Below, piece by piece: positions 14,978 through 39,171 of a DNA stretch of 52,405 bases. Source of the DNA: Candidatus Woesearchaeota archaeon CG10_big_fil_rev_8_21_14_0_10_33_12 (GTDB lineage Archaea > Nanobdellota > Nanobdellia > Woesearchaeales > CG1-02-33-12). The stretch lies in the NCBI GenBank assembly GCA_002762865.1, contig PCYE01000017.1, forward strand, positions 1 through 52,405. The letters run 5' to 3'. The position numbers and the translations under genes were made by a program. The notes beneath the pieces are model-generated. The model was given only the letters and a program-made list of their open reading frames with translations, was not told the origin of the DNA and did no database searches. The number at the start of each line of letters is the position of its first letter. The stretch's first letter is position 1.

Positions 14978-15157
14978 ATGGAATTTAGCGAGAAAAGACT
15001 GGAACAGATAAAGAACATGCCAATAGTTGAGAGCAAGGTTTTAAAGAGTAAGGATGGAAAGTTTGTTATGCACAAGACAGTCATAACAGATATAAAGCCT
15101 GTAAAATACTATGAAGCTGTTCTTGAAAAAGCTCCGGAAGAATTAGCAGAAGAGTAA
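14978..15157 (+). CDS. small 59-aa protein missing from the ORF track (below its length cutoff)
   Basis: AGGAGG (14965-14970) lies 7 nt upstream of ATG 14978. Translation: MEFSEKRLEQIKNMPIVESKVLKSKDGKFVMHKTVITDIKPVKYYEAVLEKAPEELAEE, stop TAA at 15155-15157. It fills an otherwise empty 316-nt gap. Confidence 0.5.
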   Translation: MEFSEKRLEQIKNMPIVESKVLKSKDGKFVMHKTVITDIKPVKYYEAVLEKAPEELAEE

Positions 15158-15163
15158 TTTTTA

Positions 15164-15820: not shown

Positions 15821-15882
15821 AAAAATTAAAGAATAATAGACTTATTTAAATGTTGCGTGAAAAATAAAAAAATAAAAAAGAT

Positions 15883-16704: not shown

Positions 16705-17050
16705 TGGTTTCACCCTCCCTCTTTTATTTTTTTAATATTAACTACTATTAACATATTCTGTTTTTTTAACATTTAATAGTTATTATTTTGCATATGTAAC
16801 TACACAGTCAAAAAATATAATGATTACGATGTAGAACTATTATTTAAATGTTATCTTTTTTTAGGCAATAACTGAAGTTAGTAATTGCAATTATTTGTTT
16901 GAAAGTATTTTTGTTTAAAATTTTGTGTTTTGGGAATTGGCAAAATAGATTGTATCAACTTAAATATGTTTTGTAGGTTTTACTTAAAAACAATTTATAA
17001 ACCAGAATGATTTTGCTCACTTAAGTTGACAGCACCGACAAAACAATACA

Positions 17051-17443: not shown

Positions 17444-18136
17444 ATGGTGAAAAGAATAAAGACAGGAATACCTGGATTGGATAAAGTAATGGAGGGTGGA
17501 TTAGTTGATAATTCAGTAAACCTTCTTTCCGGGGGTACAGGTACAGGAAAAAGTATTTTTAGTTTGCAGTTCTTATTCAACGGAGCAAAGCAGTTCAATG
17601 AAAAGGGATTGTACATCTCATTGGAAGAACCAGAGGAGAGTCTTAAAGCAGATGTTGAAAAACTTGGTATGGATTTCAAAAAAGTTTCTAAGAATGTCAA
17701 ATTTATGTACATGCCTCCTTATGGGATAACTAATTTCTTAGATCCTCTTAGGGAACAGATAGAAAAATTTAAACCAGATAGGATTGTTATTGATTCTTTA
17801 ACAGCCCTTGTAATGCCACTGGAAGATGACTTTGAAAGAAAAAAAGAAATTGTTAATATTATTAAACTTCTAAAAAGGTTGAAATGCACTTCAATATTAG
17901 TATCAGAGATACCAAGCAATGGAAACATTGATTCTGATTCTGTTGGAGGATTTTCAAGGTTTGGTATAGAGGAATTTTTGTGTGATAGTCTCATAATATT
18001 ACACTATGCTGGAATAGGTGGTGAATCAGATAGAGCAATAAGAATCATAAAAATGAGACAAACAAACCATGTTAGGGGACCTATTCCAATGTCTATTGGA
18101 AAGTCAGGTATAAGTGTTCTAAAAACAAAGTATTAA
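17444..18136 (+). CDS. single-domain KaiC/RecA-superfamily ATPase (COG0467-like)
   Basis: GIPGLDKVMEGGL, Walker A SGGTGTGKS, Walker B PDRIVIDSL, and C-terminal IIKMRQTNH, all typical of archaeal KaiC-like proteins. Confidence 0.8.
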   Translation: MVKRIKTGIPGLDKVMEGGLVDNSVNLLSGGTGTGKSIFSLQFLFNGAKQFNEKGLYISLEEPEESLKADVEKLGMDFKKVSKNVKFMYMPPYGITNFLDPLREQIEKFKPDRIVIDSLTALVMPLEDDFERKKEIVNIIKLLKRLKCTSILVSEIPSNGNIDSDSVGGFSRFGIEEFLCDSLIILHYAGIGGESDRAIRIIKMRQTNHVRGPIPMSIGKSGISVLKTKY

Positions 18137-18262
18137 AATTCAAGTTCTATTATTTAAAATTCATCATTAAAGGATTTTTCTGTAATATCTTTCTTAAATT
18201 TTTAATATGTTGTAAAAAATATGAAGATTAATTAAAACATGTTGGAAAAAATAAAGAAACCT

Positions 18263-18270
18263 TTTTATAT
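18263..18270 (+). promoter_or_regulatory. TATA box (TTTTATAT) for the V4R-FIST-LuxE-LuxC string, leaderless geometry
   Basis: Centre lies about 25 nt upstream of ATG 18292. No SD sequence in between. Confidence 0.4.
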
Positions 18271-18291
18271 GCTTACATATCACAGTAGTAA

Positions 18292-18762
18292 ATGCTCTCC
18301 ACATTTTTGAAAAAATTGCTTTTTGTAAGGCAATTTTTCATGACAGACGGAAAAATAGAGATACTCGGAAAAAGGCAGGTGATGTTACCACAAGAGATTG
18401 TATCTGATTTAGAGAGAGTTAGCCCAAAGACAGAGTATAAATTCCTAAAAAAGATTTTTATGGAAAGCGTTAAGGATTATGCAAAAAAAATTGGGAGCGG
18501 GGAGGAAGGAATGTTCAAAAATGTGACTGATATTTTTGAAACATTTGGATTGGGCAGGATGGAAGTAGTGAATAATGATAACAAAAAGAAGACGTGTATC
18601 ATAAGGGTTTATGATTGCCCCCTTGTAAAAGAGATAGGTAAATCACAGATACTTACAGCAGCAATGTCAGGAATGTTTTCATTTTTGTTTAACAAAGATG
18701 TTGATGCAAAGCAATTAGCATCTAAGCAAGAGTTTGATTATTACGAGTTTGTTATAAAATAA
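18292..18762 (+). CDS. V4R-domain (4-vinyl reductase-like, COG1719-type) small-molecule-binding protein
   Basis: 156 aa. C-terminal pattern GLGRMEVV...CIIRVYDCPL...TAAMSGMFSFLF resembles V4R domains. The assignment is by eye only. Confidence 0.45.
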   Translation: MLSTFLKKLLFVRQFFMTDGKIEILGKRQVMLPQEIVSDLERVSPKTEYKFLKKIFMESVKDYAKKIGSGEEGMFKNVTDIFETFGLGRMEVVNNDNKKKTCIIRVYDCPLVKEIGKSQILTAAMSGMFSFLFNKDVDAKQLASKQEFDYYEFVIK

Positions 18763-18779
18763 AAAAGAGGCGAGGCAAA

Positions 18780-20159
18780 ATGGAAAAAAAGAATGTTTAT
18801 GCTGGAACAGGGATAAGCCGGGATGATGACCCATACAAGGCAGGAAAGGAAGCTGTTGAGATGGCAATAGAGAAAGCAGGCAAATCTCCTGAGTTTGGTG
18901 TTGTGTTTTGCTCTGGCGGAAAATACGGAAATAATGATAAAAGAATAAAAAAACTTGTCGAGGGAGCACATGATGCTTTTATGGCTGCAAACAAGAACTG
19001 CAAATGGATTGGCTGCACAACAGCAGGTGAAATAAGCAATTATGGGTTCTCAACAGATTCTTGTGTTGCTATGATTATTAATTCTCAATATATTCATTTT
19101 GGTGTAGGTGTTGGAAAAAACATAAACCTTAGGCCTAAGGAAGCTGGCCAGAGAGCTATTAAGGATGCTCTTAAGAATATAAAAACAGATAAATATATCG
19201 AACCATATGTAAGATACCTTGCAGAAAAAAAATTGCCTAACTCAGAATTAATCCAAATGAGGCCCTATTCAGTTATGATGTTAAACACAGGCTTCACAGC
19301 AAAAAAAAGAGGGAATGAAGACGATATTATTGAGGGAATAGTAAATATTATAGGATATAGAATTCCCATTATTGGAGGCAGTTCTGGAGATGATTTTAAC
19401 TTAAAGAAGACTTATTCTTTTCTCAATGGCTTAGTTTATGAAGATAGTGTTATCTGCACAATCATCAGCAGCAGCATAAAAATAGGCAGTTATGTTAGCC
19501 ATGGGTACCTCCCGACTGAGAAATCTGTTTTTATTAATAAAGCACAAGATTATACAGTTTATGAAATGGATAAAAAAAATGCTTTTGATCGCTATTCTGA
19601 GGTTATTGGGAAAACTAAAGAGAATATATGGCCCAAAACAATGAAACTCCAAAAACTAGGAAGTATCTCTACAGCGTTTATGTCTTTTGCAAAAAAACTT
19701 GGAATAGATGTTATGAAATTATCACCTGTGATAGGACTTAACTGCAATTCCCCTCTAGCCCTAGTCGAATATAAACCATATGTAAAGGGAAGATTCTGGA
19801 TTAAGGCAATAGATTCTGTTATTGACAATAAATATTTGAGGTTTACTGAAAAGGTCCCACAAGAAAATGTCTTATACCTCATGAAAACAAATAAGGAAAA
19901 ATCTTTGAATGCAGGACCTGAATCTGTAATAGGGAGCTTGAAACAAGTGGACAACGAGGCTTCATTTTCACTGATTTTTGACTGTGCCCTTCACAGATGG
20001 TTCATAGGAAAACATGCTGCAAAAAGTGTTGAATTAATTAAGAAGAACCTGAAAAATATTCCTTTTGTAGGGTTCTTCGGATATGGTGAAATATTAGATG
20101 GCAAGCATACTCTTAGTGTTGTTTCAATGGTTGCAGGTAAAAAATTAATAAGCGATTGA
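18780..20159 (+). CDS. FIST-domain sensor protein (FIST_N + FIST_C)
   Basis: Motifs PEFGVVFCSG, GCTTAGEIS and IIGGSSGDD, with a C-terminal GFFGYGEI, match the FIST N/C architecture. GAGGCGAGG SD upstream. Confidence 0.7.
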   Translation: MEKKNVYAGTGISRDDDPYKAGKEAVEMAIEKAGKSPEFGVVFCSGGKYGNNDKRIKKLVEGAHDAFMAANKNCKWIGCTTAGEISNYGFSTDSCVAMIINSQYIHFGVGVGKNINLRPKEAGQRAIKDALKNIKTDKYIEPYVRYLAEKKLPNSELIQMRPYSVMMLNTGFTAKKRGNEDDIIEGIVNIIGYRIPIIGGSSGDDFNLKKTYSFLNGLVYEDSVICTIISSSIKIGSYVSHGYLPTEKSVFINKAQDYTVYEMDKKNAFDRYSEVIGKTKENIWPKTMKLQKLGSISTAFMSFAKKLGIDVMKLSPVIGLNCNSPLALVEYKPYVKGRFWIKAIDSVIDNKYLRFTEKVPQENVLYLMKTNKEKSLNAGPESVIGSLKQVDNEASFSLIFDCALHRWFIGKHAAKSVELIKKNLKNIPFVGFFGYGEILDGKHTLSVVSMVAGKKLISD

Positions 20160-20223: not shown

Positions 20224-21411
20224 ATGAATAACAAAAATTTGATGGATTATGAAAGTATAGAAAAAATTTTGGGTTTTGAAGACCCCTTCAACATAGAGCC
20301 CTCAATCTCTAGAGAGTTAAGGTTTAAGTCCTTAAAAGCAAGTTTTGAGCACCATTACCTTAACAACAAGGTTTATAAGGGATTTTGTGAGTTAGCAAAT
20401 GTTTCACCAGCAGATATTAAGAATTATGAAGATTTAGTCTTAATTCCTCTTGTTCCCTCTGATTTTTTTAGGGACGTGTCAGCAACAGGCCGCCATGAAG
20501 ATTTAGTGCATATATCCAGTGTTCCTGATGAGCAAATAGCCAGGTATTTTACAACAAGCGGAACTGGAGGGCAACCAAGTATTTATCCTTATGATGGAAG
20601 AAGTCTTGGAACAATAAACAGATCGAATGCAATTATTTTTAAAAAGGTAGGTGGCCTAAAATCAGATGATTACATGTTATTTTTAACTCCCTCTACAGAT
20701 AAGGCTGATACAGGGATGGTTCAAGGGATGTACTTGACAATGAAAGGGATTTTTAAAGACACAGATTCTCAATTAGATTTTGCCATCCAAGATAATATTT
20801 TTGATACTAAGTCTATTGTTAATAAACTGACAAAAGCTAAGGGCAGAACAAGGCACCTTTACGGACCGCCATATGCTTATAACCAACTATGTGAGCAGAT
20901 GTCTAATCTCGGATTGGAAATGAGGCTTGATCCTGAAAGCAAAGCAATCACCACAGGCGGTTGGAAATCATTTAAAGACGAAGCAATCAGCCCTTCAGAA
21001 CTGAAAGAAAAAATCCAAAAGGCATTTGGCATTGCTCCGCAGGAAATTAGAGATGGCCTTGGATTAACAGATATAATGTCTATACTAGTTGAATGCCAAT
21101 ATGGAAATAAACATGTTCCACCATGGATAGAGGTTTCTATAAGAGATTTAAATGATCCTAGTTGGAAGACAGATGTTGCTATTGGAAAGGACGGTTTAAT
21201 AGCATTTTTAGACCCATTAATATCATCCTTCCCAGCATATATTGTTACTGGAGATGTAGGAAAGCTGACTATTAGTCAAGATGAAAAATGCAGCTGTGGT
21301 AGATATGGTGCAACTATTGAATATGTTCGAAGAGCAGGTGACCCAAGGGGCTGTGCTCTCAGACAGGAACAACTTATGACTGAAGTTGAATCAAAGAGAA
21401 AAACTAAGTAA
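20224..21411 (+). CDS. LuxE-like acyl-protein synthetase / adenylate-forming enzyme
   Basis: GGAGGAG SD upstream. N-terminal FEHHYLNNKVYKGFCEL...DLVLIPLVPSDFF, nucleotide-binding TTSGTGGQPS, and the length (395 aa) fit the LuxE family. A PaaK-like ligase is the alternative. Confidence 0.65.
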   Translation: MNNKNLMDYESIEKILGFEDPFNIEPSISRELRFKSLKASFEHHYLNNKVYKGFCELANVSPADIKNYEDLVLIPLVPSDFFRDVSATGRHEDLVHISSVPDEQIARYFTTSGTGGQPSIYPYDGRSLGTINRSNAIIFKKVGGLKSDDYMLFLTPSTDKADTGMVQGMYLTMKGIFKDTDSQLDFAIQDNIFDTKSIVNKLTKAKGRTRHLYGPPYAYNQLCEQMSNLGLEMRLDPESKAITTGGWKSFKDEAISPSELKEKIQKAFGIAPQEIRDGLGLTDIMSILVECQYGNKHVPPWIEVSIRDLNDPSWKTDVAIGKDGLIAFLDPLISSFPAYIVTGDVGKLTISQDEKCSCGRYGATIEYVRRAGDPRGCALRQEQLMTEVESKRKTK

Positions 21412-21452
21412 TTTTTATTTATTTGGTTATATTTCAGAGAGACAATCCAAAA

Positions 21453-22784
21453 ATGAAAAACAATACACTGGTTAATGGTTATTACATAAATAGCATTTCT
21501 GATACTGAAATAGAATTAGAAACTAAATTAGTTGAGAATTCTCTGGGAAAAGTCAAAGTTAAAATGCCAAAATTAAATTCTGAAACTCTTGAATGTGTTT
21601 TAAGCAATTTAAGGCTGTCCAAAGAGAGTTTAGCATCCAAAACAGACAAAGAACTTCTAAATCTATTTAACACAAACTTAGGATTATGGTTAGATAAGAA
21701 TTATGGGCCCAGAAAATGTGCTCAGGATATCCTGCCTATAACCCTCGGATATTCCCCGCAAATGGTTGAAACTACTCTAAATGGAATATTTAGTATATTA
21801 AAAAAGGATTTAAATGATTTGAAAAAAACATGGGACTCAAAGGAGCTTGCAGTTGTAGTATACCCTAATATCCCCGGGCCCCAAGTAATTACAGTATTAC
21901 ACTCATTGTTTAATAGAACACCTATATTTTGCAAATCCCCATATGAGGAACCTATTTTTAGTGCTTTATACGCTAAGTCATTAGAAGATGTTGACAAACA
22001 ACTAGCAAAATCAGTATCAGCAGTTCCTTGGGAAGGAGGTGATAAGGAGAACGCAAGTCTTGAAAAGATTCTTTATAGTGGGCTTGGAAAGAGGGATGCA
22101 GTGGTTGTATTTGGTTCATCTAAGACTGCTTCAAAAATTGATTCTCTAAAAAACAAGGAATCAGAATTGATTCAATATAGCAAAGGAATAGGAATTATCA
22201 TTATTGGGAAAGAGTATTTATCAAAAGAAAATATTGATACTACAGCCAATAATTGTGCATTTAATATATCTATGTACAATAGGAATGCCTGCTTCTCTCC
22301 ACAGGGAGTTTTAGCAGAAAGAGGGGGGGAATTTGCTCCGGAAGATTTTGCAAGTTTATTAAGTATTAAAATGACCCAGATTGCTCAACATATATTGCCA
22401 GTAGGTGATTTTTCTGGTGATGATTATGCAAGATTTGCCCAGACTCACAGGTCTGCAGAGCTAAAGAGGATATCTGGTTTTGTGGATTATTTTTCTGTTA
22501 CTGATGAGAACAAAAGAATTGTTGGAGGGGTAATATACCAAAAGAAAGGAAATTTTGAGTTGCCTCGAAGCGGGCAGAGAGTTGTAACTGTTACTCCATT
22601 CAAAGAAATTAGTGATGTAAAAACAATTCTTTCAGAATATATAGAAAACATACATACAATTGGGTTAGGAATGGATAATAAAAAGTATAAAAAATATGAC
22701 TTATTGTTTAAGGAATCAGGAGTAAGGGTAAGTCCCTTAAATGATATGCTTAAGATATCAATCAGGGATTATAAATTTGTTTAA
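21453..22784 (+). CDS. LuxC-like acyl-CoA (acyl-protein) reductase, ALDH-fold
   Basis: Size and position next to the LuxE-like gene. Candidate catalytic-Cys segment MYNRNACFSPQGV. I prefer ATG 21453 over the track's TTG at 21423. Confidence 0.6.
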   Translation: MKNNTLVNGYYINSISDTEIELETKLVENSLGKVKVKMPKLNSETLECVLSNLRLSKESLASKTDKELLNLFNTNLGLWLDKNYGPRKCAQDILPITLGYSPQMVETTLNGIFSILKKDLNDLKKTWDSKELAVVVYPNIPGPQVITVLHSLFNRTPIFCKSPYEEPIFSALYAKSLEDVDKQLAKSVSAVPWEGGDKENASLEKILYSGLGKRDAVVVFGSSKTASKIDSLKNKESELIQYSKGIGIIIIGKEYLSKENIDTTANNCAFNISMYNRNACFSPQGVLAERGGEFAPEDFASLLSIKMTQIAQHILPVGDFSGDDYARFAQTHRSAELKRISGFVDYFSVTDENKRIVGGVIYQKKGNFELPRSGQRVVTVTPFKEISDVKTILSEYIENIHTIGLGMDNKKYKKYDLLFKESGVRVSPLNDMLKISIRDYKFV

Positions 22785-27443: not shown

Positions 27444-28505
27444 TTAATAATTTAACTTGTATCTTAGGATTGCAGCTATCCCGCCAAGGCCGTCCAGCTT
27501 CTTGCCGCCGTCATGATCTGAGCCGATTATATTAACAGTGCCTTTCATGCTTTCTGTGTTTTTCATCATCGGGTCTATTTTTTCATAAGTTTTGTTTAAT
27601 CTTGTCTTTTGTATTAGGCCGTCTGTAACCAATAGTTTTTCAACAGCCCCTGCAGTAACAGCTTTTTCTGTTTCTTTAAGGCCATAAACAGCAAGGCTGT
27701 TTTTTGAGATTTCCTCTAATAACAATTCAACAAGTTTCAGCTCTTTTGCAACCCTCTGCTGGCTCAGGACATTTTTTACTTCAGGCCTTTTCAGGACTTC
27801 ATCAATTGCCTCTTTTCCAGAGCAGGAGCATGTTGCCAATGTGATTTTTTTCTTGATTTCATCATTCTTTATGTTTTTCATCAAATCCTCTTTCCAGAAT
27901 GCAGGGCTTGCCAGTATTATATTTTCAATTTTATATCGCTCAGCATAATCATAAAGCTTGTTTACAACATCACCATAAAAATTTCCTGTTTTTGCTTTCA
28001 GGTCTGCTTTTTTCTCAACATCTCCCTTAATCTCAGACAGCAGGCTAAATCCCTGTTTTTTTAGAAGGCCAAAGCATACTTCATCCCTGTCAAGAACGCA
28101 GATAAGTATTTTCTTGGTTTCAACTGATGCCTGTTTTATTTTTTCAATCTGAAAGCTTAGCCATTGCTTTTTTATAACAGTAATAACAGTTCCTGGCTCA
28201 AGGTTGAATGTATGATAAGAACCTTTTTGTATGTCTTCCGGACCCTGCGTTATAGTTCCGGAAACCCTTAAAATTGAAGAATATTCATGAAATTCAACAT
28301 TTTCAACCCTTATTTCAATGAAAATAGTTTTCTTAACAATATTCACCTTTCTTTGGTCGCTCTCGCCAATTTTTATTTTCCTTACAGTCTTGCCTCTAAC
28401 AAGATCTTCTGGCTCTATTATATGGCTTAAACACCAAAGGTCATCCATATTCTCTATTTTGAATTTTGCTTCTCCTTTCTTCAAATCAAAGGATATTTGT
28501 TTCAT
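27444..28505 (-). CDS. pelA: Pelota (Dom34) ribosome-rescue factor
   Basis: 353 aa. N-terminal ...KIENMDDLWCLSHII, with central and C-terminal eRF1-like domains (LLVTDGL...). Typical of archaeal Pelota. Confidence 0.85.
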   Translation of the reverse strand: MKQISFDLKKGEAKFKIENMDDLWCLSHIIEPEDLVRGKTVRKIKIGESDQRKVNIVKKTIFIEIRVENVEFHEYSSILRVSGTITQGPEDIQKGSYHTFNLEPGTVITVIKKQWLSFQIEKIKQASVETKKILICVLDRDEVCFGLLKKQGFSLLSEIKGDVEKKADLKAKTGNFYGDVVNKLYDYAERYKIENIILASPAFWKEDLMKNIKNDEIKKKITLATCSCSGKEAIDEVLKRPEVKNVLSQQRVAKELKLVELLLEEISKNSLAVYGLKETEKAVTAGAVEKLLVTDGLIQKTRLNKTYEKIDPMMKNTESMKGTVNIIGSDHDGGKKLDGLGGIAAILRYKLNY

Positions 28506-28565
28506 ACCTCTAAAATAGGAAAACTTATATATATTAAGTTATCTATTTAAGACAGGTGATTATAA

Positions 28566-29777
28566 ATGAGTTTACATATAAAAAGCAAAAAAGCTAACGG
28601 CAATACTATTACTAGCGCTGGTGGTGCAATGGGATTTATATCCCTTATGGTTGGATTGATTATATTATATATCATATTTCTGCCACCAGGGGAAAGGGCA
28701 AAATTATTAGGGGAAAATGAGAGTGTTGAAGAAGAAGATAATGTTAGTGTAGAAACTGAAGAAAATGTTTTATTGCTTGAGTATCCAGGAAGGATTGATT
28801 ACCTGAAAGAAAAAGAGTATGAGCATGATATCTCGCCTTTTTATTTATATAAAACAACAAATGCAGAGGAGCTTGATACAATCAATCCATTTATAATAAG
28901 GCATGGCCTATTTGATGAGGTAATAAAAGATGTTCCTTTTAAGATATCAGACTTGAAAAATACAGAAAATGTTTTATTATCATTTACAGCAAAAAAGTAT
29001 AATGGATTACTAACTATAAAATTAAATGATGTTAATATATTTGAGAGCGAGATAACAACATCAAATCCAAAGCCAATAAAACTCAAAAAAGATTATCTTG
29101 AAGAGGATAATATGTTAGAGTTTAGTGTTTCCGGAACAGGAGCTAAGTTCTGGTCAACAAATATTTACAGCCTTGATGACATTAGGATAGTTGGTGATGT
29201 TGCTGATATAAGCAGGCAGGAAAGCAAAAACATATTCTTCATAAGCGAGAATGAAAAACTAAATCTTGAGATAGCCAAACTCAGATTTTTGCCTCAATGC
29301 AAACCAGAGGATGTTGGGAAGCTTGATATTTTAATTAATTACCAAAATGTTTTTTCTGGCGTGCCTGATTGCGGGGGCATAAATGTTTATAGTTTTTCAA
29401 CAAATGTTTTGTATACTGGGGATAATAACATTGTTTTTAAAACAGATAAAGGCTCTTACCTTATTGAGCAGATAAAGGTGCAGACAAGCCTTAGAGAGCT
29501 AATATACCCCACCTATTATTTTGAGATTAATGAAACAACAATTGAAAAAATTAAAGGAGACACATATGATGCTGTACTCTCTATTGAATTTGTTGATGAC
29601 AAAAAAAACAAGGAAATGAATCTCAATATAAACAACAGAATGACTTCTGTCGATACAGAGGAAGCAAAATATTTGAAAAAAATAGATGATTACCTAAGAG
29701 AAGGCAACAACTTCATAAAAATAGAGCCATTGTCAATGCTTGATATTATTGAGCTGAAAGTGGAGCTTGAAAAATAA
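28566..29777 (+). CDS. N-terminally anchored extracellular protein with three internal beta-sandwich-like repeats (403 aa)
   Basis: TM helix GAMGFISLMVGLIILYIIFL. Three repeats follow the pattern L.I.(L/I)N...(I/V)F/.......L..G.N.I.F.....Y.I..I.V (LLTIKLNDVNIFESE..., LDILINYQNVFSGV..., MNLNINNRMTSV...). Confidence 0.55.
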   Translation: MSLHIKSKKANGNTITSAGGAMGFISLMVGLIILYIIFLPPGERAKLLGENESVEEEDNVSVETEENVLLLEYPGRIDYLKEKEYEHDISPFYLYKTTNAEELDTINPFIIRHGLFDEVIKDVPFKISDLKNTENVLLSFTAKKYNGLLTIKLNDVNIFESEITTSNPKPIKLKKDYLEEDNMLEFSVSGTGAKFWSTNIYSLDDIRIVGDVADISRQESKNIFFISENEKLNLEIAKLRFLPQCKPEDVGKLDILINYQNVFSGVPDCGGINVYSFSTNVLYTGDNNIVFKTDKGSYLIEQIKVQTSLRELIYPTYYFEINETTIEKIKGDTYDAVLSIEFVDDKKNKEMNLNINNRMTSVDTEEAKYLKKIDDYLREGNNFIKIEPLSMLDIIELKVELEK

Positions 29778-29805
29778 TTTTTTATTTTTCTAAAAAGAGG
29801 GATTT

Positions 29806-32241
29806 ATGGCAAGTGCAAAGGATGTTGGGAAAAATTTTTTAAGTTGGATGAATAAAGGTTTGACTGCTAATCCTTCAATAACCCTTTTTATTGTTATTAG
29901 TCTTGTTATTCATTTAATTGATGTTTTTTCAGACTTCAGAAATACTAATTTTAGAATATTTGCTTATTTAGTATTAACAATAGCTGCATGGCTTAGCCTG
30001 TTTAAAGACCAAGAAAATCCAGGAGTTATTAATATTGCCAACATTAAAGTCCCTGTTATATTATCATCAATTGCAATATTTGCTCCTTATTTAGGGGGAG
30101 TTCTCCCTTTTTTAGGCAGTTCACAATCATTTCAGACAGCAATTATATTTTTTCCAGCTTGGGTACTGTTCCTTTGTTTTGCAATGGGGCAAAATTGGTT
30201 TATTATTATATGCAGGTGGATTATAGTATTATTATTATTGTTTCTTGTTTTTCCGACTATTATTAATGGATTTATAAATGATTTGAGAATAGGTGAAATT
30301 GAAACAGGCATTAATGTGCAGCAAACAATCTCAAATACTATGAGGGATTTAAGCTATGGAGTTAATAGTGCCTTAACAAATATTGGAAAAGCATGGAAAG
30401 ATGCCTATAATAGCCTTATAAAAACAGCCACAGGTGATTATTACACTGGAAAGGTTGATGAGTATGAGGATGAGCCAGTGGGTGTTTATCTTGAGGACCT
30501 GCAGGCAGCCGATTCAAAATTCTTTGAGGGAGAGAAAATAACAGTCTGGGCTGTTCTAAAAGCAAAAACATTGGGGGATAAAGAAATAAACATAAATGTT
30601 TCATGCTATGCAAAAGAAGGGAATAAAAAAGTAGGAGGGAGTATAATTCCCCAGAATGAATTTAACATAGCAACAGAAGAAGAAGAATATCTTGACTGTA
30701 CATTTGATAAGCTTAATCCTGGCAAGATGGATGTAACTTTTAATGCAGAATTTAATTTTGAGACAATGGCTTACCTTAAGACATATTTTATGGATAAGGA
30801 AAGTCTAAGGGCTTTGACAAGAGAGGGAATTGATGTATTCAGCCATTACAAAATCAGCAATATAAACCCAATAGCAATATATACAAATGGTCCTGTAGGC
30901 ATAGGAATGAGAACAGCTGAGCCTTTGCCGGTAGGGGTTTACAGTGATAAAGAAAATATCCCTTTTTTCTTTGGAATAACCATAGAAAACAACTGGGAAG
31001 GAACAATCAAAAAAGTGACAGGTTTGGAAATTCAGGTTCATGACAGCTTAGAGCTGACAAACTGTGACCATGTGTTTGAGTTCAAGGAAAATGAGGATGG
31101 TTATAATATATATAGCCTTGTTCCTGACAAGAGAACAGAAGACATAAAAACAAGAAAATTCCATTCTATCCAGTGCAGGTTAAACCCTGTTGACCCAAAG
31201 AGCCTGCTTGGCAATGAGCCAATAACAACAAGATATTTTAGGGTTACAGCCAGCTATGTTTATGAGCTTGAAAAATCAGTGCCAGTCGAGGTTGAAAAAG
31301 TAGAAGACTACAAAAGCCCAGAAGAAGAGGTAATGACTTCAGATGAGAAAGCACAAGAATTTAAGGATAAACTGAATGAGATGGTAGATGGAAAAACAAA
31401 TAATGAGATTGCATGCAATGTAATAAGCAAATGCAGTGATTATGATGCAAACTATTATGACAAGCTCGGCTTTAATGATCAGACTTGGTGTGATACAAAC
31501 CCTTGTAATTTAGACTGTTATTCAGCTTTCGAGAAAAGTGGTGATGAAGTTTCCTATGATTCATGCAAGGAATGCCCATATTATATGACTATTCAAGATC
31601 TACCAAGGGAAGATTACTGCAATATATACCTTGCCGAAGATTATTGTGAAAAAGATATTTGTAATTTTAGAGATTATAATATTGAATGCCAATGGTATGA
31701 TAATAAATGTATGATGGGTTTTCTCAAAAAAGAGGAATGGAAAGATTATGATGAAAGTGAAGTAAAAGCTAAACTAAGGGAGGCTGCTCAAGAAAATAAT
31801 ATCCCCCCAGAAATTTTATTAGGAGTAGCTTATACTGAAACTGGAGGCACATTTAATAAAGATTTGATTGGTGATGAAGGTGATAGTATAGGTTTAATGC
31901 AAATAAATTTTGGTTTGCATAAGAATGAATGTAATCTTGAAAGTAAAGATGAATTGTTTGACATAAATAAAAACATAGAGTGTAGTATTAAGATATTAAA
32001 AAACCATTATAATAATTTTTGTTCAGTATCAGGAAGTGAAAGATTTAGAAATAAAGTGGATGATGAAGAAAATGGATGTATAAATCCTATTTTTAATGAA
32101 AAATATAAATCATACTCCTATGAATATGGTTGTTGGAATATGGCATTAAGAGCTTATAACGGTTTTGGATGTCAGAATGAAATAATCGCTGGATATGTTG
32201 AGAGGGTTAGAAACAACATAAAAGAACAGGGATTTGATTAA
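29806..32241 (+). CDS. 811-aa polytopic membrane protein with extracellular beta-rich domain, Cys-rich linker and C-terminal family-1 lytic transglycosylase (SLT) domain
   Basis: About 5-6 N-terminal TM helices (residues about 25-150). C-terminal motifs AYTETGG (candidate catalytic Glu, nt 31837-31839), GLMQIN (31891-31908) and RAYNGFG (32152-32169) correspond to SLT motifs ES / GLMQ / AYNxG. Confidence 0.7.
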   Translation: MASAKDVGKNFLSWMNKGLTANPSITLFIVISLVIHLIDVFSDFRNTNFRIFAYLVLTIAAWLSLFKDQENPGVINIANIKVPVILSSIAIFAPYLGGVLPFLGSSQSFQTAIIFFPAWVLFLCFAMGQNWFIIICRWIIVLLLLFLVFPTIINGFINDLRIGEIETGINVQQTISNTMRDLSYGVNSALTNIGKAWKDAYNSLIKTATGDYYTGKVDEYEDEPVGVYLEDLQAADSKFFEGEKITVWAVLKAKTLGDKEININVSCYAKEGNKKVGGSIIPQNEFNIATEEEEYLDCTFDKLNPGKMDVTFNAEFNFETMAYLKTYFMDKESLRALTREGIDVFSHYKISNINPIAIYTNGPVGIGMRTAEPLPVGVYSDKENIPFFFGITIENNWEGTIKKVTGLEIQVHDSLELTNCDHVFEFKENEDGYNIYSLVPDKRTEDIKTRKFHSIQCRLNPVDPKSLLGNEPITTRYFRVTASYVYELEKSVPVEVEKVEDYKSPEEEVMTSDEKAQEFKDKLNEMVDGKTNNEIACNVISKCSDYDANYYDKLGFNDQTWCDTNPCNLDCYSAFEKSGDEVSYDSCKECPYYMTIQDLPREDYCNIYLAEDYCEKDICNFRDYNIECQWYDNKCMMGFLKKEEWKDYDESEVKAKLREAAQENNIPPEILLGVAYTETGGTFNKDLIGDEGDSIGLMQINFGLHKNECNLESKDELFDINKNIECSIKILKNHYNNFCSVSGSERFRNKVDDEENGCINPIFNEKYKSYSYEYGCWNMALRAYNGFGCQNEIIAGYVERVRNNIKEQGFD

Positions 32242-32245
32242 GAAG

Positions 32246-33178
32246 ATGAATATTAAGCAAAATAAAAATACTGGAATTATTTTATTAATTATAACTACAT
32301 TAATTTTCTCAGGATGCATACAAAATCCTTTTGTAAAAACAACAACGCAGGATGACTTCAGAACAGGAAGCCAGGGAATACTAATGGAATTCTTGACTAA
32401 TGCCCCTCCAAGTGAGACATATGAAGAGTACCCATTCCAGGTAGGGGTTATTTTAGAAAATGTTGGAGCATATGATACCAAAAATGGTTTTATTTCTTTC
32501 ACAATTGAAGAGGATTATATGGAGCTAATGAACCAAAATGATGATGTTGTTAGCTTTAGCCTAAAGGGCAAGTCTGTTTCCCTCCCAACAGGAGACCAGT
32601 TAGTAAAAATAATAAAAGCAAATACAAAAAAAATAGACGAACAAAGTGAAAAACATGATTCAACAGTATTAGCAAATGTGTGCTATCAATACCAAACAAA
32701 AAAAGATGTTACAATCTGTATAGATACAGATATTTATAATCTTAAAGAAATGCAAAAAGTATGTAATATTAAAGACATAACCTTAACTCCTCAGGGAGCT
32801 CCTGTTGCAATAACAAAGATAGAGAGCGAGATGCTTCCAGCAGAGGATGATAACCTAATAAAGCCAGCATTTAAAATTCAGATAAAGAATGTTGGCAATG
32901 GGGAGGTTATTGACAAGGGTAAGATATCTGATATATGCTCATCAGAGCCAGTAGATTATAAGGAATTAAATACAGTTGATATAAAAGTCATGCTTTCCAA
33001 TGAAGAGCTTGAATGCAAGCCAACACCTTTAAAGCTAAAATCTAATGAAGATGAGGTTAGGTGCATTCTTGAGAAAGGCATTCCAAAAGACAGGGCAACC
33101 TATACTAGTCCATTGACAATTGAGCTGGACTATGGCTATACATACTCTATATCAACTAAGGTTGTAATAAGAAAATAG
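32246..33178 (+). CDS. lipoprotein, paralog 1 of a three-member family
   Basis: Lipobox LIFSGC. Shared family motifs: RTGSQGILMEF..APPSETY, CYQYQT......CI, GAPVAITKIE, LTIELDYGYTYSIS. I prefer ATG 32246 over the track's TTG at 32234. Confidence 0.65.
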   Translation: MNIKQNKNTGIILLIITTLIFSGCIQNPFVKTTTQDDFRTGSQGILMEFLTNAPPSETYEEYPFQVGVILENVGAYDTKNGFISFTIEEDYMELMNQNDDVVSFSLKGKSVSLPTGDQLVKIIKANTKKIDEQSEKHDSTVLANVCYQYQTKKDVTICIDTDIYNLKEMQKVCNIKDITLTPQGAPVAITKIESEMLPAEDDNLIKPAFKIQIKNVGNGEVIDKGKISDICSSEPVDYKELNTVDIKVMLSNEELECKPTPLKLKSNEDEVRCILEKGIPKDRATYTSPLTIELDYGYTYSISTKVVIRK

Positions 33179-33225
33179 TTTTTAATAGAAAGTTTTAAAT
33201 ACAAATCAAGGGATTATATAACAAA

Positions 33226-34173
33226 ATGAGAAAAATTATATTGGTAATCCTTATATTATTCTTGTTCTTAAGTTTTGGATGCACCACAAAAACAGGAGAA
33301 ACTGATGTTGATTACAGAACTGGGACTCAGGGAATTGTTATGAATTTCATGACAGATATACCTCCAGCCAAGATGTATGATGATATGCCAATTGACCTTG
33401 TTGTAGAGATAAAAAACAAAGGGGCTTATCCACAGCCAACAAGCATTACTGGCTGGGCAATTATCACAACCTCTGGCACAAATGGGATTGGAACCTTTTA
33501 TTTAAGTGGTTTTGATGACACCCTTATAATGGGCATGCCAAAACAGATGTCAGTTTCTAACCTTGAGGGGAAAAACCCTTACAACCTGGAAGGAGGTTAT
33601 GATGTGATTTCATTTAGGGGCAATATAATAAATTTTGACAGCAGGAATATTGATAGTTATAATGCAAACTTTCTTGTTACATCATGCTATAATTATGAAA
33701 CAATAACTTCCCAAACAATCTGTGTTGATCCAGAGCCCTATTCAGCAAAGGAAAAAACAAAAGTTTGTACCATCCCACCTAGTTATTCTTTATCAGGAGG
33801 CCAGGGTGCTCCTGTTGCTGTAACAAAAATAGAAGAGGCTGTGCTCTCAAACAAAATACAATTCAAGGTATATATAAAGAATCTTGGAGACGGCAAGATT
33901 GTTGACAAGAATAGGCTTAATATTGACTGCCCATATTCGCTGGACTATACAAACCTCAATAAGGTTTATGTAAGCGGCCGTGTTTCTGGCTACAGCCTCA
34001 GCTGCAAGCCAAATAACCCAATTAATTTAATAAATGGAGAGGGAAGTGTTGTATGCACTGTTCCAAAACCAGCAATGAGCAAGTCAGCATATACCACCCC
34101 ATTGCAGGTTAAATTAGAGTATGGCTATTCATCATCAATACAAAGAAGTGTTGAAATATTAAACACACCCTGA
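33226..34173 (+). CDS. lipoprotein, paralog 2
   Basis: Lipobox LSFGC. Motifs: RTGTQGIVMNF..IPPAKMY, CYNYET......CV, GAPVAVTKIEE, LQVKLEYGYSSSIQ. Confidence 0.65.
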   Translation: MRKIILVILILFLFLSFGCTTKTGETDVDYRTGTQGIVMNFMTDIPPAKMYDDMPIDLVVEIKNKGAYPQPTSITGWAIITTSGTNGIGTFYLSGFDDTLIMGMPKQMSVSNLEGKNPYNLEGGYDVISFRGNIINFDSRNIDSYNANFLVTSCYNYETITSQTICVDPEPYSAKEKTKVCTIPPSYSLSGGQGAPVAVTKIEEAVLSNKIQFKVYIKNLGDGKIVDKNRLNIDCPYSLDYTNLNKVYVSGRVSGYSLSCKPNNPINLINGEGSVVCTVPKPAMSKSAYTTPLQVKLEYGYSSSIQRSVEILNTP

Positions 34174-34228
34174 TTAACAGAAAAATTTATATAATCAAAT
34201 AATGTATTAAAAACCGGAGGCTTGAAAA

Positions 34229-35152
34229 ATGAAAAATTATGTTAATATAATATTAATATTGGCTTTACTGATTTTTGCATCTGGATGCGGAAAAGAAACA
34301 GCTCCTTCTAAGGAAAGCCCATTTATTGGCGGAACAACAGGTCTTTTGATAAGTTATGATGAGGGTGCACCTCCTGCAGAGGTCTATGATGGAGGAGACT
34401 TTGATTTTGAAGTTGTTGTCAAGCTAAAGAATGATGGCGAACAAAGTGTAAGCAAGGATAAGGTGGAGGTAAGCCTTAGTGGAATTGACCCAAGGGAATT
34501 TGGATTATCAGATTCAAATTTTGTTAAACACCCTGATGAGGACTTAGAAAAGACTTACAAGGATTCTGAGGGAAACAAGATAGAAGGAACAACAACTTGG
34601 GTGGTATTTTCTGGATTAAATCACCGTGAAAGCTTAATTGGGAACACTCCTTATACAGTAAGGGCAGAGGTATGTTATAATTATGCAACAGATATAAACT
34701 CAATGCTTTGCATAAAAAAAGGCCAGATTGATAAAGAAGGAGATATCTGTAAGATTACTGAGGAAAAAGCTGTTTTTAACTCAGGCGGACCAGTACAGGT
34801 TACAAGCTTTAAAGAAACTCCTAAAGGGAGTAATAAGTTTAACTTTCAGTTTACAATAAAACCTAAGGGAAATGGGGGAATATACAAAAAAGATTCTAAC
34901 TGCGAGTATACAAGGGCAAATGAAAACAAGATTTTTGTGAGCGTTGATACAGGAATGAGTGGCTTAACCTGTGTTGGTTTAGATGGTGGCGCTACAAGTG
35001 GTTATATAACTTTATATAGCGGAGAACGTACGATAACCTGCACCCAGGATACAGAAACAAACACAAACTTTGAAAAACCAGTTAATATAAAATTAGAATA
35101 TGATTATGAAGAAGATATATCAACACAGGTTTTGGTAAAACATTCTACTTAA
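34229..35152 (+). CDS. lipoprotein, paralog 3 (more divergent)
   Basis: GGAGG SD and lipobox FASGC. Motifs: [24 protein letters not shown]......[27 protein letters not shown]. Confidence 0.65.
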
Positions 35153-36114
35153 TTTTCTTTTTTTATTCCTATTAAAGTAACCTGACTTAGAAGCGCTTCT
35201 AGCTGCAAAAATTCGTCAGAGCCTTCAACCATCCTGAACTCTATCTCGCCGCATTTGTCTATTAAAAACATCTTTTTTCTTGGCTCAATATCAAGGTTTA
35301 ATATTTCTTTCTGAATCTGCTTTATTACATCAAAGCCAGACAATCCATACTCAAGCATTATATCCAATAATTTGTTTCTTGCATCCTTGAATTTATTTTT
35401 TAAGGCAAGGTTTAATACTTCATCTATTTCTTTTGGCCTTGCAACAGAGGCCATTGAATAAATAAGTTCCTCTGTTATCTCATTTGAGAGTGCTGCACAG
35501 CTTTGCAGTATGTTTTCCATCCTCCTGCAGTCCCCGTTGCTGATTTCATATAATGCTTCTTTTGCTTCATCATTCATTTTCAATGATTCTGATTTTACAA
35601 TACTCTCAATGATCTCTATAATATCTTTTTTAATTAAAAACTTAAACCTAAATATAGCACATCTTGATTGTATTGGTTCTATAATTTTACTGCTGTAGTT
35701 GCAGCTGAGAATAAATCTGCATGTGCGAGTGTAATTCTCCATTGTCCTTCTTAAAGCCTGCTGTGCTTCTTTTGTCAAGGCATCTGACTCATCAAGGTAG
35801 ATTATCTTAAACGGCACATCGCCAATTGCCCTTGTCCTGGCAAAATCCTTTACCTTGTTTCTTACAACATCAATCCCTCTTTCATCAGAGGCATTTAATT
35901 CAAGAATATTCTCGTGCCAGCTGTCACCAAACAATTTTTTTGATATTACCAAAGCCAGGCTTGTCTTGCCTGTCCCTGCTGGCCCAGAAAACAATAAATG
36001 AGGCATATTTTTTTGCTTAACAAATGCCTTTGCCTTTTTGACTATTTCCTTTTGGCCTTTTATATCAGAGAATTCTTTTGGCCTATATTTTTCAGTCCAG
36101 ATTGTGTTTTCCAT
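35149..36114 (-). CDS. rfcS: replication factor C small subunit
   Basis: [16 protein letters not shown], Walker [10 protein letters not shown], Walker [12 protein letters not shown], and the SRC motif QSRCAIFRF. Confidence 0.95.
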
Positions 36115-36162: not shown

Positions 36163-36426
36163 TTAAATTATATCCTCTTCTGCTATAACAATAAAATCTC
36201 CCATAGCTATTACTGCACTGAAAGGTATTAGTATTTCGCCTTCCTTGTTTTTTTCAAGCTCTAGCTTTTCTGTGTATGTTGTTGGATTGCCTAAGACTAT
36301 GTTGATAAGTTCTCCAGATCTTGTTTCAAATATAATATCCCCTACCTCACCAAATCGCTTTCCAGTTTTGCTAACAACAGTTTTACCTATTAATTGTTTT
36401 GAGAATTTTTTATCTTCTTCAGCCAT
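36163..36426 (-). CDS. PRC-barrel domain protein
   Basis: The segments LIGKTVVSKTGKRFGEVGDIIFETRSGELINIVL and ILIPFSAVIAMGDFIVI are PRC-barrel-like. ATG 36426 with a GGTGGA SD is preferred over the track's GTG at 36435. Confidence 0.65.
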   Translation of the reverse strand: MAEEDKKFSKQLIGKTVVSKTGKRFGEVGDIIFETRSGELINIVLGNPTTYTEKLELEKNKEGEILIPFSAVIAMGDFIVIAEEDII

Positions 36427-36560
36427 TACATCCACCCTTACATGATTTTTAATGTTATCTTAAATGGTTAAGTTATATTTAAATCTTTTGGAAATAAAAT
36501 CTTAATATGGGGTAAAAACCAAAAAACTTTTAATGTTATCCACTATTTATTCTAATTAAA

Positions 36561-39096: not shown

Positions 39097-39171
39097 AGCG
39101 GGGTGGGGCAGTCAGGAGTGCCCGATGGGCCCATAACCCATAGGTCAAAGGTTCAAATCCTTTCCCCGCTA
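39097..39171 (+). tRNA. initiator tRNA-Met (anticodon CAU), archaeal type, no encoded CCA, no intron
   Basis: Manual cloverleaf. Acceptor AGCGGGG/CCCCGCU with A1:U72. D stem GGGC/GCCC. Anticodon stem AUGGG/CCCAU with three consecutive G:C pairs (29-31:39-41). Anticodon loop CCCAUAA, variable loop AGGUC, T arm AAAGG-UUCAAAU-CCUUU, discriminator A. Confidence 0.9.

Follow-up and report, generated by a model that had tools for sequence, protein, structure and literature searches.

Organization of the locus

Inspection of the 52,405-nucleotide stretch of DNA analyzed here (the window) reveals five co-directional open reading frames on the + strand between positions 28566 and 35152, referred to as g1 to g5 and separated by gaps of 28, 4, 47 and 55 nt (Table 1); these coordinates reproduce entirely the layout described in an earlier note on this sequence. 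The start of g3 was taken at the ATG codon; an alternative TTG start at 32234 would give an 8-nt overlap with g2. The g5 stop overlaps by 4 nt with the 3' end of the convergent gene for the RFC small subunit. Ahead of g1, an A/T-rich TATA-like stretch (ttatatatattaa, 28525–28537) and a purine-rich SD-like aggtga (28554–28559) constitute a putative control region within the 60-nt divergent spacer common to g1 and pelota; such motifs are common by composition, since the genome has a GC content of ~33%. The g2 protein is 100% identical to AUJ83_02240 from Candidatus Woesearchaeota archaeon CG1_02_33_12, and the window matches that MAG.

Table 1. Coordinates of the five genes, of their domains and of the flanking genes
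Feature	Residues	Nucleotides	Strand	Remarks or basis
pelota (eRF1-like), conserved left border of module		27444–28505	−	Pfam
Putative g1 control region		28525–28559	+	read from sequence
g1		28566–29777	+	403 aa
g1 β-rich repeat R1	66–205	28761–29180	+	hhalign
g1 β-rich repeat R2	206–312	29181–29501	+	hhalign
g1 β-rich repeat R3	313–403	29502–29774	+	hhalign
g2		29806–32241	+	811 aa
g2 five TM helices	~18–160	29857–30285	+	hydropathy
g2 long helix	171–219	30316–30462	+	
g2 β-sandwich 1	226–330	30481–30795	+	AlphaFold
g2 β-sandwich 2	364–497	30895–31296	+	AlphaFold
g2 Cys-rich linker, 12 Cys	~536–636	31411–31713	+	Cys count
g2 SLT/GH23 domain	658–740 (Pfam); fold reaches ~800	31777–32025	+	
g3, position-1 lipoprotein paralogue		32246–33178	+	310 aa from ATG; lipobox-like IFSGC; position-1 orthogroup
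g4, position-2 lipoprotein paralogue		33226–34173	+	315 aa; lipobox-like LSFGC (Cys19)
g5, position-3 lipoprotein paralogue		34229–35152	+	307 aa; lipobox-like FASGC; position-3 orthogroup
RFC small subunit, conserved right border		35149–36114	−	Pfam, synteny
PRC-barrel protein, conserved right border		36163–36435	−	Pfam, synteny

Architecture of the encoded proteins

The most conserved of the five proteins, g1, starts with a K-K-A-N/Q motif, a hydrophobic helix (residues ~17–40, nt 28614–28685), a conserved LPP.ER..LL sequence and an acidic linker; [KR][KR][AGS]Q and a hydrophobic core are found at the N-terminus of 76 of 81 orthologues. Comparison of its β-rich repeats by hhalign relates R1 to R2 (E 9.5e-5) and R2 to R3 (E 0.008) but gives no significant match between R1 and R3, so that the triple repeat proposed earlier is supported in part. 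Pfam, NCBIfam and PDB sequence searches yielded no named family for g1; its sub-threshold Pfam matches, under every cut-off, are exclusively to CBM-like jelly-roll families (DUF4979, DUF6805, PL4 CBM-like, Sialidase N, GH2_N2), and its 596 homologues, from Woesearchaeota/Nanoarchaeia, are all hypothetical proteins.

The paralogy claimed for g3, g4 and g5 is borne out by BLASTP, with 34% identity for g3/g4 (E 8e-45), 26% for g4/g5 (E 2e-17) and 24% for g3/g5 (E 8e-10). The sequence motifs listed as common to them are found in the alignment, although g5 has only degenerate forms of RTG(S/T)QGI and of the beginning of the terminal motif. The announced lipoboxes are present at the N-termini as lipobox-like sequences, the cysteine of which is invariant in the family alignment (59 sequences), and a relaxed lipobox pattern occurs in 126 of 141 homologues. 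As in the archaeal lipobox proteins lipidated by AliA/AliB in Haloferax volcanii (PMC12462473), the signal peptide ends in this motif with its invariant Cys; unlike in these substrates, the residues at −3/−2 are non-canonical (F-S, S-F, A-S). AliA, an archaeal lipoprotein lipidation enzyme family, has been reported in DPANN (PMC12462473), and the three proteins are probably lipidated. The AlphaFold model of g4 (pLDDT 90.2, pTM 0.83) comprises two β-sandwiches (residues ~37–167 and ~197–312), and the protein has six further conserved Cys. Foldseek retrieved generic Ig-like pairs only (TM ≤0.24), and the modeled fold is a generic tandem Ig/CARDB-like sandwich. Searches by sequence in Pfam, NCBIfam and PDB gave no named family for g3–g5, and the mature domain, belonging to none of the described lipoprotein families, is still unnamed after profile searches and Foldseek, as it was in the earlier note. 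The best Foldseek/Pfam neighbors of the lipoproteins and the g2 ectodomain, namely integrin alpha leg domains, CARDB domains and Enterococcus WxLIP (PDB 9i25/9i1y), show likeness of fold class only, with TM values of 0.2–0.24 and all Pfam scores below cut-off. The lipoprotein family comprises 3674 clusters, some homologues carrying C-terminal Cys-rich or Ig/fn3-like arrays; this end of the protein is therefore probably exposed and distal to the membrane anchor.

The muramidase-like domain noticed in the 811-residue g2 corresponds to Pfam SLT PF01464 (36.1 bits for a cut-off of 21.3), with PDB profile matches to Slt70, MltC and MltE (E 5e-8 to 1e-5) and intact catalytic motifs: the Glu aligned to Slt70 E478, GLMQ, and AYN.G aligned to AYNAG. 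In these respects it resembles the family-1 lytic transglycosylases (E. coli Slt70, MltC, MltE; CAZy GH23), but its host is a murein-free archaeon and the domain is placed behind a 5-TM anchor, two β-sandwiches and a 12-Cys linker. Residues 1–520 were modeled with a pLDDT of 84. The TM bundle is poorly conserved, a profile built on it missing many orthologues.

The suggestion that the g2 ectodomain holds a fourth, diverged copy of the lipoprotein domain fared less simply. It was not significant in profile comparisons (E 0.11 with 3 sequences, E 0.086 with 59) nor by hmmsearch (≤5.5 bits), whereas hhalign of the lipoprotein family against a divergent g2 clade gave E 6e-4 across 95 columns in its favor. 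It is also supported by the AlphaFold models of both proteins, which consist of two β-sandwiches, each closed by a hairpin of ~24 residues bearing the motifs noted earlier, and retrieve the same set of Foldseek hits (integrin alpha legs, VPS26, TG2, C5/CVF, CEP192 SPD-2).

Conservation of the module and exchange of the g2 C-terminal tail

The order pelota (−), g1, g2, lipoproteins, RFC (−) recurs in 80 species-level genomes, with pelota upstream of g1 in 74 of the 80 loci, and is kept at only ~30–45% protein identity between species-level Woesearchaeal genomes. The 36 complete intervals contain g2 in 35 cases and exactly three lipoproteins in 32, all on one strand. Lipoproteins have their best hit at the same position in 109 of 111 comparisons, which implies non-redundant subunits, and the three positions are separate ancient orthogroups. 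The order of the 403-residue protein, the 811-residue protein and the lipoprotein triplet, which was to be checked in related genomes, is conserved, and together with the position-specific orthogroups it strongly supports the claim of the earlier note that this is a dedicated module and not a random set of surface proteins; of the two outcomes jointly named there as contrary to its reading, assignment of the lipoprotein domain to a known family and lack of conserved order, neither was observed. One could still consider unrelated surface genes lying side by side or mis-called ORFs, as function is deduced only and AT-rich genomes yield long spurious ORFs. Homologues numbering in the hundreds to thousands, confident AlphaFold models and an order conserved at ~30% identity leave this hardly any probability, the synteny and orthogroup results refuting it for practical purposes. 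We propose that the five genes form a cell-envelope module that is restricted to Woesearchaeales-type archaea and inherited vertically. Median identities to the window are 29% for g2, 34–37% for the lipoproteins and 44% for g1 versus 54% for pelota and 72% for RFC; the module thus evolves faster than its housekeeping neighbors, as exposed proteins do.

Examination of 45 g2 homologues reveals different C-terminal tails: SLT (20), Amidase_2 (3), M23 (2), NlpC/P60 (2) and others; an SLT+M23 variant is found within the canonical locus. Among the 51 complete g2 sequences at species level, 24 have the SLT domain and 10 stop directly after the second sandwich; a recognizable murein hydrolase is absent from g2 in about half of the species. 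The core function can therefore not lie in murein cleavage, and the conserved core must serve a purpose independent of it; the conserved part of g2 is the TM and double-sandwich scaffold, with SLT as one of several exchangeable tails.

These data bear on a rather unlikely but substantial alternative, a housekeeping envelope scaffold in the form of a membrane-proximal layer or an S-layer anchor or spacer for the cell's own integrity, shape or division, the hydrolase being a secondary addition, bacteriolytic or defensive, in certain lineages. The core (g1, TM and ectodomain of g2, lipoproteins) is indeed near-universal and the tail optional, the module keeps the same chromosomal place among pelota, RFC and TyrRS and is inherited vertically, archaeal envelope proteins are usually built from tandem Ig/CARDB-like sandwiches, and Haloferax lipoproteins influence shape and growth (PMC12462473). 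On the other hand, models and profiles matched neither the MSTP-like class, proposed as S-layer proteins of Nanoarchaeota (10.1101/2024.05.28.596244), nor any S-layer family; the repeated, independent joining of at least five different murein-hydrolase families to a single scaffold would be puzzling were the latter unrelated to murein, and the faster evolution suits an exposed interaction surface.

Related systems and possible function

Gram-positive conjugation hydrolases (PrgK, TraG of pIP501, TcpG) possess an N-terminal membrane anchor followed by SLT, M23 and/or NlpC/P60-CHAP type domains, and bacterial secretion and conjugation machines come with dedicated lytic transglycosylases (VirB1, PrgK, TcpG). 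The g2 homologues show the same hydrolase repertoire, and the g1 N-terminus is class-III-signal-like ([KR][AG]Q and a hydrophobic stretch), as would befit a secretion, conjugation or type-IV-filament apparatus with g2 as VirB6-like polytopic protein plus VirB1/PrgK-like wall-opening enzyme and g1 as pilin-like subunit. We consider this very improbable: unlike these systems, the module is devoid of T4SS genes, its scaffold domains are unrelated and the target wall would be that of another cell, the archaeon itself lacking any murein wall that would need opening. Neither an ATPase nor a platform protein, prepilin peptidase or coupling protein was found in the window or the conserved flanks of the 80 loci, g1 and g2 match no T4SS or TFF family, and the statement that no secretion ATPase is adjacent agrees with the Pfam scan of window ORFs of at least 100 aa, which detected no secretion or pilus ATPase.

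SusE and SusF of Bacteroides starch utilization are lipid-anchored tandem β-sandwich proteins, encoded as paralogues beside a surface glycan hydrolase. Likewise, g3–g5 are tandem β-sandwich paralogues with predicted lipid anchors adjoining a surface glycan hydrolase gene; they differ by the absence of a SusC/D-type transporter, by the domain of life and membrane, and by the lack of any sequence or significant fold match. A Sus-type scavenging of murein, in which g1 and the lipoproteins would bind free peptidoglycan fragments or necromass for g2 to cut, the products being imported by transporters encoded elsewhere, for nutrition and not cell-cell contact, would account for the combination of a surface-tethered glycan hydrolase, tandem β-sandwich lipoproteins and a CBM-like protein, and Woesearchaeota are proposed as recyclers of cell-wall material in passages of two reports (PMC9723730; PMC11537232). 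It is nevertheless improbable, as neither the window nor the 80 related loci have a transporter, a binding-protein fold or a muropeptide-catabolic gene in or beside the module, the hydrolase is missing in half of the species, and the poorly conserved g2 TM bundle is unlike a transporter.

By domain type, g2 is a Woesearchaeal membrane/extracellular murein lytic transglycosylase comparable to the large extracellular SLT-domain proteins of Woesearchaeota/Pacearchaeota (fam00969, Castelle et al. 2021, PMC8204110; GH23 genes, Vigneron et al. 2022, PMC9723730; AR20, Castelle et al. 2015). Passages of these papers already propose that such proteins bind bacterial walls (PMC8204110; PMC9723730), and the same hypothesis, binding or degradation of the bacterial wall, applies to g2; whereas the SLT protein is treated alone in those passages, g2 is one of five genes in a fixed syntenic module.

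Tentatively, and with somewhat less than even confidence, we favor a membrane-anchored hetero-oligomeric surface platform that displays domains for glycan binding and murein cleavage to bacterial partners. Lipoproteins g3–g5 and the g2 ectodomain would be four ancient paralogues derived from one β-sandwich pair, tethered N-terminally to the cytoplasmic membrane by a predicted thioether-lipid anchor (g3–g5) or by the 5-TM bundle and long helix (g2), and their free C-terminal ends would be the site where lineages attach extra domains. In g2 this addition is usually a murein-cleaving enzyme, a GH23 lytic transglycosylase here and Amidase_2, M23, NlpC/P60 or lysozyme/GH73-like elsewhere. A pilin-like or signal-anchor helix would hold g1, whose three jelly-roll repeats weakly resemble carbohydrate-binding modules. 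The five proteins may assemble, with fixed stoichiometry, into a surface stalk or platform that keeps the glycan-binding subunit and, where present, the murein hydrolase off the archaeon's own membrane. Such an assembly could take hold of the peptidoglycan of a bacterial partner and breach it locally, whether to attach, to feed or to kill.

The overall interpretation of the earlier note is partly supported: host contact or wall remodelling may be the function, the only handles being the SLT domain, the hydrolase swapping and the weak CBM-like signals of g1, but the word machine is too strong, because neither an energy source nor a moving part is evident. Against the platform, the modeled fold is generic (TM ≤0.24) and uninformative on function, and a constant place among informational genes would suit a housekeeping role in the envelope just as well. 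To our knowledge no host is known for any Woesearchaeon, and for many Woesearchaeota an association with archaea, which have no murein, is assumed. SLT proteins were known previously, whereas the five-gene module appears to be undescribed; it provides a concrete candidate for the means by which these tiny uncultured archaea attach to bacteria or feed on them.

Gene order and conservation of the module

The module consists of g1 (403 aa), g2 (an 811-aa polytopic protein with an SLT domain) and g3, g4 and g5, three paralogous lipobox proteins of about 310 aa. Checking the open reading frames bears out the earlier description of five ORFs on one strand with gaps of 28, 4, 47 and 55 nt; the 4-nt gap between g2 and g3 presupposes an ATG start at 32246, and a TTG at 32234 is open as well. 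Promoter-like and SD-like motifs of archaeal type were spotted by eye, in a genome that is AT-rich; the window is archaeal DNA of low (about 33%) and uniform GC content. The g2 protein is 100% identical to the hypothetical protein AUJ83_02240 of Candidatus Woesearchaeota archaeon CG1_02_33_12. Pta and AckA are encoded upstream of the module, and the remaining window ORFs of at least 100 aa that were scanned correspond to housekeeping, regulatory or other surface proteins.

Positions of features in the window and in loci of related genomes
Sequence	Feature	Position	Strand	Remark
Window	DDE_Tnp_1 transposase ORF	78-797	+	left edge
Window	960-aa giant protein	4085-6967	+	Big_9, He_PIG, cadherin-like, PKD Ig repeats
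Window	1399-aa giant protein	6978-11177	+	same repeat types; beside the 960-aa protein
Window	MoxR AAA_3 ATPase, DUF58 protein, BatA/VWA protein	12006-14847	+	in series
Window	FIST-domain protein, KaiC-like ATPase	17444-20159		ahead of the LuxE/LuxC pair
Window	LuxE-like acyl-protein synthetase, LuxC-like acyl-CoA reductase	20224-22784	+	adjoining
Window	pelota	27444-28505	-	left neighbour of the five genes
Window	g1	28566-29777	+
Window	g2	29806-32241	+
Window	g3	32246-33178	+
Window	g4	33226-34173	+
Window	g5	34229-35152	+
Window	RFC small subunit	35149-36114	-	right neighbour; then PRC-barrel protein, TyrRS
Window	tRNA-Met (CAT)	39097-39171	+	sole tRNA gene in the window
Window	small membrane protein, PEMT/ICMT family	47082-47525	+	isoprenylcysteine carboxyl methyltransferase-like
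L003	RFC gene	14204-16777		intein and LAGLIDADG domains
L004	additional 92-aa gene	5932-6210		between g1 and g2
L085	second locus type	7001-10992
L087	second locus type	9-3659

Several features outside the module may be mentioned. The two giant proteins are probably adhesins and a second host-contact candidate in the same genome; a similar protein of 2190 aa is found close to the g2 paralogue of L085, a locus from a related genome. We take the MoxR/DUF58/BatA-VWA row to be the Bat/MoxR-type cluster known from bacteria. The LuxC/LuxE pair seems unexpected in an archaeon.

The same gene order was observed on three distant contigs, and it held across a wider survey of related genomes (one per GTDB species), in which a nine-sequence g1 alignment used as query retrieved 80 loci, to which our own HMMs were then applied. 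All 80 loci come from Woesearchaeota/Nanoarchaeia-type MAGs, and pelota is located upstream of g1 in 74 of them. The interval from g1 to RFC is complete in 36 loci, with all its genes on one strand; g2 is present in 35 of these, and the number of lipoprotein genes is exactly three in 32, two in 3 and four in 1. In 109 of 111 cases, a lipoprotein has its best between-genome match at the equivalent position; together with the fixed count, this indicates that the triplication predates the radiation and that every paralogue was retained. Such a retention of three paralogues is the pattern expected of non-redundant subunits in one assembly.

Many TPA 'binchicken' MAG records (L006, L007, L010, L012, L024 and others) are titled 'uncultured Methanosarcinales archaeon'. 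These loci contain the Woesearchaeal module at 40-90% identity with the same flanks and, judging from this content, the titles are probably mislabels. The RFC small subunit beside the module reaches 846-961 aa in several relatives (L003, L017, L027, L084). The window has nothing equivalent to the additional gene of L004 in its 28-nt gap between g1 and g2.

Two departures from the canonical arrangement were encountered. The loci of a divergent clade (L073, L074, L076, L077, L080 and L084, at about 1-9 kb downstream of g1) encode one to three lipoproteins and a g2 of about 590-655 aa devoid of a tail, i.e. of whatever follows the second β-sandwich; some of them have an ORF of about 314-322 aa (N-terminus MKIAILGGGSWGTALAVHLAK...) where the RFC border would be. 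The second locus type, represented by L085 and L087, includes neither g1 nor pelota and places a g2 paralogue carrying an Amidase_2 or NlpC/P60 tail ahead of one lipoprotein-family gene, after which comes a H+-pyrophosphatase gene. The pair of g2 and a lipoprotein may be the minimal unit.

The lipoproteins and the ectodomain of g2

The paralogy of g3, g4 and g5 is clear (pairwise E-values of 8e-45, 2e-17 and 8e-10), and the motifs quoted for them in the earlier note are common to all three in the alignment, although partly degenerate in g5. Each N-terminus displays a basic n-region, a hydrophobic core and a lipobox-like X-X-G-C. The lipobox cysteine is invariant in the 59-member alignment and a relaxed lipobox pattern is found in 126 of 141 homologues from related genomes, the remainder being near-misses; relative to [LVI][ASTVI][GAS]C, the lipobox-like ends of the window proteins (FSGC, SFGC, ASGC) are non-canonical at positions -3/-2. 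Six further cysteines are conserved in the family, which fits an extracellular location. The archaeal lipidation enzyme AliA is arCOG02177, and the modification expected of such lipoproteins is a thioether-archaeol on the Cys. This enzyme has been reported for DPANN generally (PMC12462473). The PEMT/ICMT-family protein of the window might act on lipid-modified proteins.

The family comprises 3674 clusters (50% identity) at E ≤1e-3 and 1826 at E ≤1e-30. The earlier note could not place it in a named family; no Pfam or NCBIfam model was found here either, and a PDB sequence search with the lipoprotein profile gave no match. Weak matches to CARDB (2 of 59 members) and Integrin_A_Ig_3 (4 of 59) are all under the Pfam cut-offs, and Foldseek searches of the lipoprotein and g2 models returned Ig-like folds at E-values of 1e-4 to 2e-7, yet with TM ≤0.24. 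A phage or mobile origin was rejected, because the BFVD Foldseek matches of the lipoprotein model are generic Ig-like folds only and PHROGs matched the SLT part of g2 only; the uniform GC content and the housekeeping flanks agree with this.

The organization of g2 was deduced from an AlphaFold model of residues 1-520 (pLDDT 84) and from hydropathy. Five transmembrane helices (residues ~18-160) are followed by a long helix (about 171-209) and by two β-sandwich domains (226-330 and 364-497); a linker with 12 cysteines connects this double-sandwich part to the SLT domain. An N-in/C-out topology is assigned because the N-terminus is basic.

It had been proposed that the g2 ectodomain holds a fourth, diverged copy of the lipoprotein domain. 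For the window's own family this likeness is not significant by sequence: hhalign gave E-values of 0.11 for the three-paralogue profile against g2 and 0.086 for the 59-sequence lipoprotein profile against the g2 family, and hmmsearch with the lipoprotein HMM reached at most 5.5 bits on 101 g2 homologues. The models of g4 (pLDDT 90.2, pTM 0.83) and g2 are alike in plan, with two sandwiches each closed by a hairpin of about 24 residues (144-167 and 289-312 in g4, 306-330 and 473-497 in g2), and the colinear motifs noted earlier, which hhalign also aligns, fall inside these hairpins. Both models have the same Foldseek neighbours, all of them generic (integrin alpha leg domains, VPS26, transglutaminase barrels, C5/CVF and CEP192 SPD-2). 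Moreover, a six-protein profile of the divergent g2 clade matches the lipoprotein family (E-value 6e-4, with 95 aligned columns in the second sandwich), and the C-terminus of this clade ('...AELEYDYLIE...') nearly equals the lipoprotein C-terminal motif. Because the model plan, the common neighbours and the divergent-clade profile agree, the fourth copy is accepted, at least for the second domain.

Exchangeable tails of g2 and the features of g1

The domain of g2 described as muramidase-like is an SLT domain (PF01464, residues 658-740; 36.1 bits, cut-off 21.3). Lytic transglycosylases of the SLT/GH23 type cleave MurNAc-GlcNAc bonds, giving 1,6-anhydroMurNAc. PDB matches of the g2-family profile are Slt70, MltC and MltE (E-values of 5e-8 to 1e-5), and the consensus motifs E-S, GLMQI and AAYNAG align with the catalytic motifs of Slt70, Glu478 corresponding to E-S. 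The window enzyme looks competent, since AYTETGG, IGLMQINF and RAYNGFG are present, with Thr rather than Ser after the Glu.

A phmmer search with the g2 tail alone gave no matches. Of the 51 complete species-level g2 sequences, ten end straight after the second sandwich, whereas the other 41 continue into a tail of 106-440 aa. SLT accounts for 24 of these tails, 6 contain fn3, and a few are lysozyme-type domains of other kinds. Among 45 metagenomic homologues we found SLT (20), Amidase_2 (3), M23 (2) and NlpC/P60 (2), with single lysozyme-like, SLT_2 and glucosaminidase cases; an SLT+M23 variant occurs within a canonical locus. At least five unrelated murein-hydrolase families have thus been grafted onto g2. 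In some lipoproteins, too, the C-terminus is extended by up to ~700 aa of Cys-rich or Ig/fn3-like sequence. These C-terminal additions on both proteins suggest that the N-termini are the membrane ends, the C-termini being free ends that display lineage-specific domains.

g1, which has 596 homologues, shows the strongest conservation among the five genes: in distant genomes it has a median identity of 44% to the window, whereas g2 stands at 29% and the lipoproteins at 34-37% (pelota 54%, RFC 72%). The triple repeat attributed to it is partly supported: R1 matches R2 (E 9.5e-5) and R2 matches R3 (E 0.008), whereas R1 against R3 is not significant; the internal repeats, with the core 'G.L.I.LN(G)..(I/V)F ... 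L..G.N.I.F', are real but weak. Profile comparison found no relation of g1 to the lipoprotein family (one aligned column), and a PDB sequence search with the g1 profile found no match. All Pfam signals are sub-threshold and of carbohydrate-binding jelly-roll type (best E 0.002): DUF4979 (7 of 34), DUF6805 (5), PL4 CBM-like (4), Sialidase N (2) and GH2_N2 (1).

In 76 of 81 orthologues, the g1 N-terminus reads [KR][KR][AGS]Q, with a 20-residue hydrophobic core beginning 0-5 residues on, followed by LPP.ERE.LL; G-G-x-N stands directly after the Q in many, and the window protein has KKAN in place of KKAQ. Such a sequence resembles an archaeal class III (prepilin-type) signal and could alternatively be a plain signal anchor. 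Neither the window nor the conserved flanks contain a prepilin peptidase, assembly ATPase or platform protein beside g1, and these may be encoded elsewhere in the genome. That the module is a secretion or pilus apparatus is highly improbable, every core component being missing: Pfam reveals no secretion or pilus ATPase among the scanned window ORFs (≥100 aa). A T4SS/TFF assignment was dismissed because no ATPase or platform gene was found there; likewise, the window has no Pfam families of VirB4/VirD4-type ATPases or of a VirB6-like protein near the wall hydrolase.

Possible roles at the cell surface

The architecture of the module is well supported, and we rate it as kin of surface-anchored murein hydrolase or adhesin assemblies. 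The best explanation of its function, put forward tentatively and short of being probable, is a membrane-anchored hetero-oligomeric surface platform, in which g1 would be the glycan-binding subunit and the g2 tail would, in many lineages, be a murein hydrolase presented to bacterial cells. The main rival, in which the module is a housekeeping scaffold of the envelope and the hydrolase an add-on, is rather unlikely in our view. It accords with the fixed place of the module among informational genes and with about half of the species having no recognisable hydrolase; it is then hard to explain why murein hydrolases were fused to this particular scaffold again and again. Nor does the module match the S-layer class proposed for Nanoarchaeota, MSTP-like/DUF1608 (10.1101/2024.05.28.596244): no S-layer protein appears among the top Pfam, PDB-sequence and Foldseek matches, and an S-layer assignment is unsupported. 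A Sus-like role in scavenging is still more doubtful, as any transporter partner is lacking.

That these archaea have SLT proteins is already known, and two papers propose that the Woesearchaeal and Pacearchaeal ones bind and degrade bacterial walls (PMC8204110; PMC9723730). The surface platform favoured here extends that idea. In the literature searched, the coverage of which is incomplete, we came across no account of the five-gene module, of the g2 ectodomain as a paralogue of the lipoproteins, of the ancient fixed triplication or of the tail swapping.

No Woesearchaeon is known to have been cultivated, and it is mainly through their SLT-domain proteins that genomes have hinted at some of these archaea targeting bacteria. 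This hint is now placed within a defined, near-universal five-gene module, which includes an unnamed protein family with thousands of members, an ancient fixed triplication pointing to a hetero-oligomer, and a scaffold, g2, that has repeatedly received different murein hydrolases; the module provides concrete reagents and predictions. It is also conceivable, if unlikely, that the module is a trans-kingdom contact organelle, in which a hetero-oligomeric stalk of four paralogous double-sandwich subunits and a glycan-binding pilin-like subunit would dock on bacteria and bore the sacculus with an exchangeable hydrolase tip; much of the very abundant Woesearchaeales would then be episymbionts or predators of bacteria, not of archaea. 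Even if it proves to be nothing more than an envelope scaffold, the module would remain the first candidate for the core of the surface architecture in Woesearchaeales.
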